Sequence record: OR846179.1 | Source of the DNA: a phage | DNA: 1,224 nt | Direction: 5' to 3' (one strand) | In this document: piece after piece, positions 1-1,224 of the stretch | Layout of the letters: every line of letters starts with the position of its first letter | Numbering within the stretch: the stretch's first letter is position 1 | Position numbers and translations under genes: made by a program | The notes under the pieces: model-generated | The model's database searches: none | What the model was told of the DNA's origin: nothing | Seen by the model: only the letters and a program-made list of their open reading frames with translations

Positions 1-58
1 TTTTGTAGCTTTTGTCTTTTGGCTTTGCTGTCTCGACTTGTCTAGCATTGAGCTTCAT
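1..58 (-). CDS. int: 5' end of a P4-type tyrosine integrase gene (N-terminal arm-binding domain); partial, continues beyond the left window edge
   Basis: Minus-strand ATG at 58..56 opens a frame with no stop to position 1, translating MKLNARQVETAKPKDKSYK. The AKPKDK-YK pattern matches the conserved N-terminus of P4-family integrases as I recall it. Context supports it: an att-like core and arm-type repeats lie immediately upstream. Only 19 codons are visible; an in-frame alternative ATG exists at 70..68; no Shine-Dalgarno is evident. Confidence 0.5.
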   Translation of the reverse strand, partial: MKLNARQVETAKPKDKSYK

Positions 59-112
59 TTGGGGGCACATTTCTAATCGAAGTTAAGATGCCCCCAATTA
101 TGCCCCCAATGA
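58..112. repeat. Cluster of three TGCCCCCA(A) motifs, candidate arm-type integrase binding sites on the int side of the core
   Basis: tgccccca occurs on the minus strand at 60-67 (plus reads tgggggca) and on the plus strand at 89-96 and 101-108. The last two sit in a tandem 12-bp duplication: atgcccccaatt (88-99) and atgcccccaatg (100-111). Confidence 0.4.
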
Positions 113-126
113 CATCCGGATTTCAA
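97..126 (-). promoter_or_regulatory. Candidate sigma70-type promoter for int, overlapping the arm-type repeats
   Basis: On the minus strand, TTGAAA (plus 121-126) is a -35-like hexamer and CATAAT (plus 97-102) a -10-like hexamer, 18 bp apart, roughly 40 bp upstream of the int ATG at 58. Hexamer match only; no experimental support. Confidence 0.25.
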
Positions 127-222
127 CGGACAACCTCGGACGATCCAAGATCGTAGAAATCGCTGAAAGTATTGATTTTTAATGGATAATCGGACTTACT
201 CGGATGGACTTGGAAGTAATAA

Positions 223-246
223 TGGTGCCGAAGGCCGGACTCGAAC
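223..246 (-). other. Attachment-site core: 24-nt 3' end of a tRNA-Leu gene (T-loop, acceptor 3' strand, CCA); not a complete tRNA
   Basis: Minus strand reads GTTCGAGTCCGGCCTTCGGCACCA: T-loop TTCGAGT, T-stem 3' strand CCGGC, acceptor 3' strand CTTCGGC, discriminator A, CCA. This matches my recollection of the E. coli leuX 3' end. The sequence 5' of it (247-300) is AT-rich and cannot form the rest of a tRNA. Confidence 0.55.
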
Positions 247-296
247 ATCAAAATAAGTTAATGATAAAAAACAAATAATAAAACACAACAATGAAA

Positions 297-321
297 TATG
301 CCCCCTTTTGTGCCCCCACTG
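297..321 (+). repeat. Two further TGCCCCC motifs, candidate arm-type integrase sites on the other side of the core
   Basis: tgccccc at 299-305 and tgccccca at 311-318, same orientation, 12-bp spacing, about 55-70 bp from the core. Confidence 0.4.
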
Positions 322-387
322 TTTTTCTGACCAATCTATTTTCAGCCCATCAATAAATCGGAAAGTTAAATCATTTTTAATCAGTAA

Positions 388-414
388 GTTTGGATCCGTA
401 GCTCGGATCCAAAC
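388..414. repeat. Perfect 11-bp inverted repeat with 5-bp spacer (gtttggatccg-tagct-cggatccaaac); candidate protein-binding palindrome or hairpin
   Basis: 388-398 is the exact reverse complement of 404-414. It sits between the att-like region and the iteron repeats. No adjacent U-tract on either strand, so a classic terminator is unlikely. Confidence 0.5.
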
Positions 415-435
415 CAGTGCATCTTTTATCCACAT

Positions 436-555
436 AAAAAATTTTTTTTCGAAAGAACTGTTCACACTGTTCACCTTTCTGTTTTCTCCTTTTATTTCAG
501 TTTGATAGGTGGTGAATAATGGGTGAAGGGTGAACATTCGATTCTTCACCTCCGG
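436..555. repeat. Direct repeat copy 1 (~120 bp) of a crr/ori-like iteron region carrying TGTTCACC octamers
   Basis: Aligns to 617-736 at a 181-bp offset with high identity. Contains an A6T8 tract (436-449); exact TGTTCACC at 468-475 (+) and 529-536 (-); degenerate copies at 459-466 (+), 511-518 (-), 522-529 (-) and 543-550 (+). Confidence 0.7.
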
Positions 556-616
556 CATTCTGCCGGTGTGACTCATACCGGTGATTAATCCCCCGTACTG
601 AAATCACACAGGGAGA

Positions 617-736
617 AAAAAAGTTTTTTTTGATTTGATTGTTCACACTGTTCACCTTTCGTTTTTCTCTTTTAATTTCAGTGTGATAACTGGTGAATAT
701 ACGGTGAAGGGTGAACAGTGGATTGTTCACCTTCGG
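617..736. repeat. Direct repeat copy 2 (~120 bp) of a crr/ori-like iteron region carrying TGTTCACC octamers
   Basis: Contains an A6-g-T8 tract (617-631); exact TGTTCACC at 649-656 (+), 710-717 (-) and 724-731 (+); degenerate copies at 640-647 (+), 692-699 (-) and 703-710 (-). Confidence 0.7.
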
Positions 737-748
737 GGAATTCAGGGA

Positions 749-774
749 TAAAAAAAGACCGGCAGATGCCGGTC
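749..774 (-). terminator. Rho-independent terminator downstream of the primase-like CDS
   Basis: 7-bp GC-rich stem (757-763 gaccggc / 768-774 gccggtc), 4-nt loop, followed on the minus strand by a run of 7 U (plus-strand A run 750-756). It lies 16 nt past the stop codon at 793..791. Confidence 0.6.
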
Positions 775-790
775 AGGTGGGTCATGAGGG

Positions 791-1224
791 TCAGGTTGTT
801 GCAGGGTCGTCACATTTTGGCAGCCAGTCGCCGTAGCTTTCCTCTTTCAGCGTCAGGTTGGTCTGTATCCCCTGTTTGGTATGGCGCTTCTCGTAATTCA
901 GTCCGTATTCCTTCAGCATCACCGGCAGCCCCAGCCCGAACATTTTCAGACTGAGTACATTCCGGTAGCCGTTTGCCTCCATGTAGGCCAGATAGGCGTG
1001 ATAGAGGTATTTACGGTAATTACGCGGGATGATACTGGCGTTCCCCATATACATGCCGCTGGTCTGCGGCAGGGTTTCCAGATAGCCGATAAAATCAAAC
1101 GTCGGGTCGGCATCCCGTTTGATGTTCAGCGCCTCGTCTGAGTTCTGCTGGGACTGAAGCAGTGACCGGGCGAGCATCGGGTCGCTGAACTTCTGCATCA
1201 GGTGACGCACGATGACCGCCAGCT
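791..1224 (-). CDS. 3' portion of a P4-family primase/helicase (alpha-like) gene, encoding the C-terminal domain; 5' end lies beyond the right window edge
   Basis: Minus-strand frame is open from the window edge to TGA at 793..791. The GTG at 1210 in the ORF track is only the first in-window start; the frame stays open upstream (..LAVI..). The product call is by context (TGTTCACC iterons directly downstream, terminator after the stop) and a general resemblance to P4-type primase C-termini; no homology search was possible. Confidence 0.7.
   Translation of the reverse strand, partial: LAVIVRHLMQKFSDPMLARSLLQSQQNSDEALNIKRDADPTFDFIGYLETLPQTSGMYMGNASIIPRNYRKYLYHAYLAYMEANGYRNVLSLKMFGLGLPVMLKEYGLNYEKRHTKQGIQTNLTLKEESYGDWLPKCDDPATT

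Follow-up and report, generated by a model that had tools for sequence, protein, structure and literature searches.

The attP of phage lambda is recognized by a heterobivalent Int and carries the arm-type sites P1/P2 and P'1-P'3 on arms that are bent by IHF. For the satellite phage P4, a 1987 study by Pierson and Kahn reportedly described an attP with a leuX core and arm repeats, and the P4 GenBank record already carries the attP core and the arm repeats as features. PMC7286903 states, citing Pierson & Kahn 1987, that Int, attP and attB serve the integration of P4 at a leucyl-tRNA locus, and that a high-affinity IHF site is present in the regulatory region of P4 int. PMC2951348, based on Piazzolla et al. 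2006, adds that P4 Int binds DNA directly close to where int transcription starts and in this way represses its own gene, and that Vis likewise represses int. The same paper describes KplE1 (CPS-53) attL/intS in E. coli K-12, where the integrase promoter lies within the att arm and the integrase represses itself by binding there.

We examined a stretch of phage DNA of 1,224 nt (OR846179.1; hereafter the window) in which positions 58-321 had been proposed, on a sequence-only reading, to have the layout of a lambda/P4-type attP. All 1,224 nt of the window aligned with positions 3857-5069 of P4 X51522 (= NC_001609) at 96.1% identity, with 49 differing alignment columns in total, and the aligned stretch of P4 comprises the int 5' end, attP, crr and the alpha 3' end. 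When the deposited annotation of the P4 record was moved onto the window via this pairwise alignment, the annotated features mapped one to one in the int-attP-crr-alpha context, by which the two regions are orthologous. Every defining feature of the P4 attP that could be tested was found in the window. The core and the five arm 12-mers are identical to those of P4 (20/20 and 60/60 positions, respectively) and keep the order, orientation and spacing of the P4 attP (X51522 / NC_001609 / X05947; Pierson & Kahn 1987, J Mol Biol 196:487), and the int promoter, crr and the alpha gene flank the site in both. We conclude, with a probability of roughly 0.93, that window 58-321 is the attP of a P4-type satellite phage, located beside the 5' end and the promoter of the tyrosine integrase gene. 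The proposed layout was therefore that of an orthologous site. Judged by sequence, the attP architecture, the leuX core and the arm repeats are already known, from the P4 attP in a 96%-identical relative.

The repeats of this site were recovered at the five places where the sequence-only reading had seen them. TGCCCCCA occurs exactly at 60-67 (minus strand) and at 89-96, 101-108 and 311-318 (plus strand). The fifth copy, which had been given as 299-305, is exact as a 7-mer, but the full 8-mer at 299-306 (plus strand), TGCCCCCT, has one mismatch and matches at 7/8 positions. While the motif is real, the unit is not 8 nt as proposed but about 12 nt, which is the length of the 12-mers annotated in P4. 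The designation as arm-type sites coincides with the P4 record's own term for the same five sites, "attP arm sequence repeat". The five ~12-nt repeats are centred on TGCCCCC and lie on both sides of the core, with P4's order and orientation kept. The int side, at 113 bp from the core, has an inverted copy, ATGTGCCCCCAA (59-70, minus strand), which covers the int start codon and the ribosome-binding region, and a tandem pair, AGATGCCCCCAA (86-97, plus strand) and TTATGCCCCCAA (98-109, plus strand). On the crr side, 53 bp from the core, there is a second tandem pair, ATATGCCCCCTT (296-307, plus strand) and TTGTGCCCCCAC (308-319, plus strand). All of them are annotated in X51522 and identical to it, the inverted copy at 12/12 positions; the int-side pair is conserved in relatives and the crr-side pair is conserved down to 75% identity.

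With at most one mismatch allowed, TGCCCCCA has five matches in 58-321. The count for the whole window is six, where 1.19 would be expected, and no dinucleotide shuffle out of 200 (0/200) reached six. The sixth match, at 974-981 inside alpha, is probably due to chance. Moreover, RTGCCCCC occurs five times in a 14.7-kb locus that contains the whole prophage, and all five occurrences are these arm sites. A chance origin of the repeats was rejected on the basis of this shuffle enrichment and of their confinement to the arm sites in the 14.7-kb locus. A structured RNA was likewise rejected, since no Rfam model matched near its gathering score. The best match was DicF at 60-109 (17.8 bits versus a cut-off of 48), which arises from the inverted arm repeats. 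A further, sixth arm repeat is listed in the P4 record: ATATGCCCCCGA, at P4 3621-3632, some 300 nt into int and thus beyond the window. The O157-type element, by contrast, has no RTGCCCCC within int, and so lacks a counterpart of this repeat. The sixth copy is therefore not conserved and may be non-functional.

Comparison with relatives separates the repeats from the DNA around them. On the int side, all 36 repeat positions (36/36) are unchanged in six relatives at 86-96% identity, whereas the 113-nt spacer carries 13-29 changes. In a relative at 81% identity, the tandem pair is conserved at 22/24 positions and the inverted copy at 11/12, versus 48/113 for the spacer. Across all seven relatives (7/7), the inverted repeat at 59-70 keeps 11-12 of its 12 positions. 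On the crr side, relatives at 75-80% identity retain 22-24 of the 24 positions of the arm pair, compared with 30-31/53 in the 53-nt spacer and 11-13/27 beyond the repeats, with no indels in the distance between core and repeats. In these alignments, relatives at 75-81% identity have scrambled spacers but essentially unchanged repeats and repeat spacing. Of the columns that differ from P4, those inside the att region (59-319) lie in the spacers, mainly in the int-side spacer at 110-222 (17/113 columns); in the crr-side spacer (243-295) position 243 alone differs, and 247-500 is identical to P4. Some blocks of the int-side spacer are also kept in relatives at ≥86% identity, namely ATCCGGATTTCAACGGAC (114-131) and CTCGGATGG..CTTGGAAGTA (199-219), and these might be candidate sites for Vis or IHF. 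The IHF consensus WATCAANNNNTTR, with one mismatch allowed, matches once in each arm (165-177 and 254-266); 110 of 200 shuffles gave as many matches, which is the level of chance.

The protein that would read these repeats is encoded next to them. The 5' end of int occupies 1-70 on the minus strand, where the P4 int CDS start maps to position 70, and its first 23 codons translate to MCPQMKLNARQVETAKPKDKSYK. The annotated start differs by record: in P4 it is the ATG at 70 (MCPQMKL...), which lies inside the inverted arm repeat, and in the prophages annotated by RefSeq PGAP it is the second ATG, at 58 (MKL...). With either start, the inverted arm repeat covers the translation-initiation region. 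The full-length integrase of a prophage whose int-side end is identical to window 1-246 contains PF13356 Arm-DNA-bind_3 (residues 3-89, E = 5e-27), PF22022 Phage_int_M and PF00589 Phage_integrase, and the P4 protein is entered in RefSeq as an "integrase arm-type DNA-binding domain-containing protein". Thus, three independent lines, namely motif specificity, the phylogenetic footprint and the partner integrase, support the repeats as functional sites. That they bind the excision factor Vis or a host protein instead of Int is exceedingly unlikely. In att arms, direct repeats in tandem are a frequent target of recombination directionality factors. The sites of these factors are normally found on one arm, between the core and the arm-type sites, whereas the repeats in question lie on both arms, are labelled arm sequence repeats in the P4 record, and are matched by an integrase with a dedicated arm-binding domain. 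In addition, PMC2951348 reports that Int binds DNA at the int promoter.

The int promoter, Pint, lies on the minus strand at 97-126. A sigma-70-like consensus scan identified a −35 element, TTGAAA (126-121), an 18-nt spacer and a −10 element, CATAAT (102-97), with 10/12 matches, and the two elements fall on the annotated −35 and −10 of the P4 record X05947, from which coordinates were transferred as the L002 coordinate minus 1298. The −10 straddles the junction of the two int-side tandem repeats. With the Pint −10 lying under the tandem pair and the int start codon under the inverted copy, Int bound there would be expected to repress int as well. The overlap also raises the question of whether the TGCCCCC repeats could be operators for int autoregulation only, with no role in recombination. 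The position of the int-side copies is compatible with such a role, and Int autorepression through DNA binding is reported in PMC2951348. However, the crr-side pair (296-319) lies ~170-220 bp upstream of Pint, past the core, and in integrated prophages it is ~11.7 kb away from int. This pair is nevertheless as strictly conserved as the int-side copies and is held at a fixed distance from the core, which a role as operator alone does not explain. Operator and recombination roles are not mutually exclusive, and a purely regulatory function of the repeats is very unlikely.

Between the two arms lies the attP core, the 20-bp strand-exchange site at 223-242 (minus strand), which is given as the core feature in both X51522 and X05947 and is 20/20 identical to them. 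It corresponds to the 3' end of the leuX tRNA-Leu(CAA) gene, CCA included, and in the window the identity extends to position 246. The reverse complement of 223-246, GTTCGAGTCCGGCCTTCGGCACCA, equals the last 24 nt of the 85-nt E. coli tRNA-Leu(CAA) gene as defined by ARAGORN and RefSeq. The proposed 24-nt tRNA-Leu 3' fragment on the minus strand is therefore an exact leuX end, but the annotated functional core within it is 20 bp. An intact tRNA gene inside the window was considered and rejected, as only this 3' fragment is present. As both the positions of the arm repeats and the match to the tRNA 3' end were verified, the original sequence observation is confirmed; a direct comparison with the P4 attP was also positive, for the core and for each of the five 12-mers.

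The chromosomes of E. coli show the same site in its integrated form. Window 1-246 has a 100% match beside tRNA-Leu, where the alignment stops inside the tRNA gene, and window 223-1224 is found at a second place in the same genomes at 99.8%, beginning exactly at the first base of the core. The two alignments overlap in the core only. In strain 7784, the two halves of the window are ~11.7 kb apart, at opposite ends of a P4-like element at leuX that encodes an integrase, a polarity suppression protein, an Ogr/Delta-like protein, an Icd-like protein and a primase, and a split of this kind around a P4-like prophage at leuX occurs in many E. coli genomes. At the int-side junction, the tRNA gene is complete. 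At the far junction, the core is present as a partial copy, after which comes the region downstream of leuX, and in O157:H7-type genomes the same prophage has a far junction identical to window 247-1224. This pattern is the product that would be expected if an attP with this core integrated into leuX. The leuX P4-like prophages, such as the ~11.7-kb element of O157:H7-type genomes, thus resemble the window in that their ends are identical to its halves, and differ from it in that they carry the site as two separate junctions, with a degenerate copy of the core on the crr side (A243 and a 1-nt deletion).

Several observations on these prophages go beyond the att site. The 1-nt deletion in the crr-side core copy (TGGTG-CGAAGG versus TGGTGCCGAAGG) is present in 5/6 aligned prophage junctions, from elements 75-99% identical to the window; it may reflect decay of immobilized prophages, a phage-borne variant or a mutational hotspot. 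In the O157-type prophage, a type II restriction endonuclease and a DNA cytosine methyltransferase are encoded between the int end and psu (L004 3371-5396). The int-psu interval of P4-like satellites is known to hold variable defence cargo. Directly beyond the crr-side junction (L004 13295-14384) there are a truncated second tyrosine integrase, a transposase fragment and then a gene for a phosphorothioated-DNA-binding restriction endonuclease, an arrangement that suggests remnants of a second island in tandem at leuX.

The identity of 24 nt with the tRNA depends on G243. P4 has A at this position, so that its identity with the tRNA is 20 nt, and A243 is also found in 4/4 aligned crr-side junctions of close relatives of P4 (94-99% identity). 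The crr-side core copy of the O157-type prophage (L004 13070-13094) carries A243 together with the 1-nt deletion. A crossover within the 20-bp core would therefore regenerate A243. Because the 24-nt identity rests on a base that is absent from the crr-side junctions of close relatives, the window may be a prophage joined via the tRNA-side core. It looks like an O157-type prophage joined through the tRNA-side core copy, which could be a computational circularization or an unusual natural product. We therefore considered that the att components are real but that the intact attP is a reconstruction, made by cutting a leuX prophage at its direct repeats and circularizing or rotating the sequence, in which case this exact junction, with 24 nt of tRNA identity, might never have been seen as an actual molecule. 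This account concerns the provenance of the junction and is not a rival for its function, and we give it somewhat less than an even chance. The arms are 100% identical to both ends of the O157-type prophage, yet the core is the tRNA-side copy, with G243 and an intact CC, instead of the A243 that a crossover inside the 20-bp core would yield and that P4 has. No perfect match to 223-330 was found among E. coli complete genomes, where the best match was 99.1% (a single mismatch), and no intact attP of this lineage besides that of P4 was found in E. coli complete genomes, plasmids, viral contigs, species-representative genomes or metagenome contigs. On the other hand, P4 itself has the same contiguous arrangement, and excision of such prophages necessarily yields an attP of this form. 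G243 could also be a natural variant, as the more distant STEC388 and LR9-2 carry G at the equivalent position. In a stronger version of this last point, the G243 core would be a genuine natural attP variant with 24 bp of leuX identity, most leuX P4-like elements being locked in by a damaged junction and a minority remaining mobile with an improved core, which we regard as unlikely. Whichever holds, the question of G243 touches only the provenance of the junction and the detail of 20 versus 24 nt; it does not touch the identity or the function of the site as a P4-type attP.

The remainder of the window follows P4 as well. According to the P4 annotation, the cis replication region, crr, spans 436-736 and consists of two 120-nt direct repeats (436-555 and 617-736) that are 83% identical to each other. 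Each of them contains five TGTTCACC-type octamers in both orientations, which are annotated as ori type 1 repeats in the P4 record. With at most one mismatch, this octamer has 11 matches in the window against 1.17 expected, a number that was reached in 0/200 shuffles; ten lie in crr and one in alpha, the latter probably by chance. The P4 annotation likewise places the alpha terminator at 750-774 and, on the minus strand, the 3' end of the primase gene alpha at 791-1224, with the stop codon at 791-793. Between the terminator and the stop codon, in non-coding DNA, the window has a 9-nt insertion relative to P4 at ~779-787, which creates the near-duplication GTCAGGTGGGTCATGAGGGTCAGG. Between attP and crr, at 388-414, the window contains an inverted repeat with perfect 11-bp arms, GTTTGGATCCG / CGGATCCAAAC, and a loop of 5 nt. 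P4 shares it in identical form, but its record bears no annotation there, and the repeat lacks the T-run signature of a terminator.

From lambda-type heterobivalent integrases and the P4 literature, a mechanism can be proposed for this P4-type attP. The N-terminal Arm-DNA-binding domain of Int would bind the TGCCCCC repeats, presumably contacting each of them, and the central and catalytic domains would bind and cut the core. Bending of the DNA in the arms, probably by IHF, would allow a single Int molecule to connect the core with an arm site. Strands would then be exchanged inside the 20 bp shared with leuX, which would integrate the element, and the core copy of the phage would replace and thereby restore the tRNA 3' end. 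Int occupying the int-side repeats would, in addition, shut off Pint.

Such a mechanism invites comparison with lambda. Both attP sites combine a short core with five arm-type sites, distributed over both sides at distances of tens to ~150 bp, and both are used by an integrase with a separate N-terminal arm-binding domain. In contrast to this similarity of layout, there is no sequence relationship between the two sites, the P4 core lies within a tRNA gene, and the arm-binding domain of the P4 type belongs to another Pfam family (PF13356). A further difference is that int of P4 faces away from attP and has its 5' end next to it, so that its promoter and start codon coincide in part with the arm sites. 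IHF sites, which belong to the lambda arms, have no statistical support in the window, where consensus matches are at chance level. As to the overlap with the promoter, KplE1 provides a parallel, as described in PMC2951348. The element, integrase, repeats and target are all different in that system.

As a discovery, the attP described here carries little weight; its value is one of calibration, in that a reading made from the sequence alone rebuilt the att architecture correctly. The comparative data add a clear phylogenetic footprint, which supports a functional role for each of the five repeats throughout the P4-like family, and a warning that the 24-nt core of the window is probably the tRNA-side copy. 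If, however, G243 is a natural variant, it would make a small point on domestication versus mobility of P4-like satellites, with no new mechanism.
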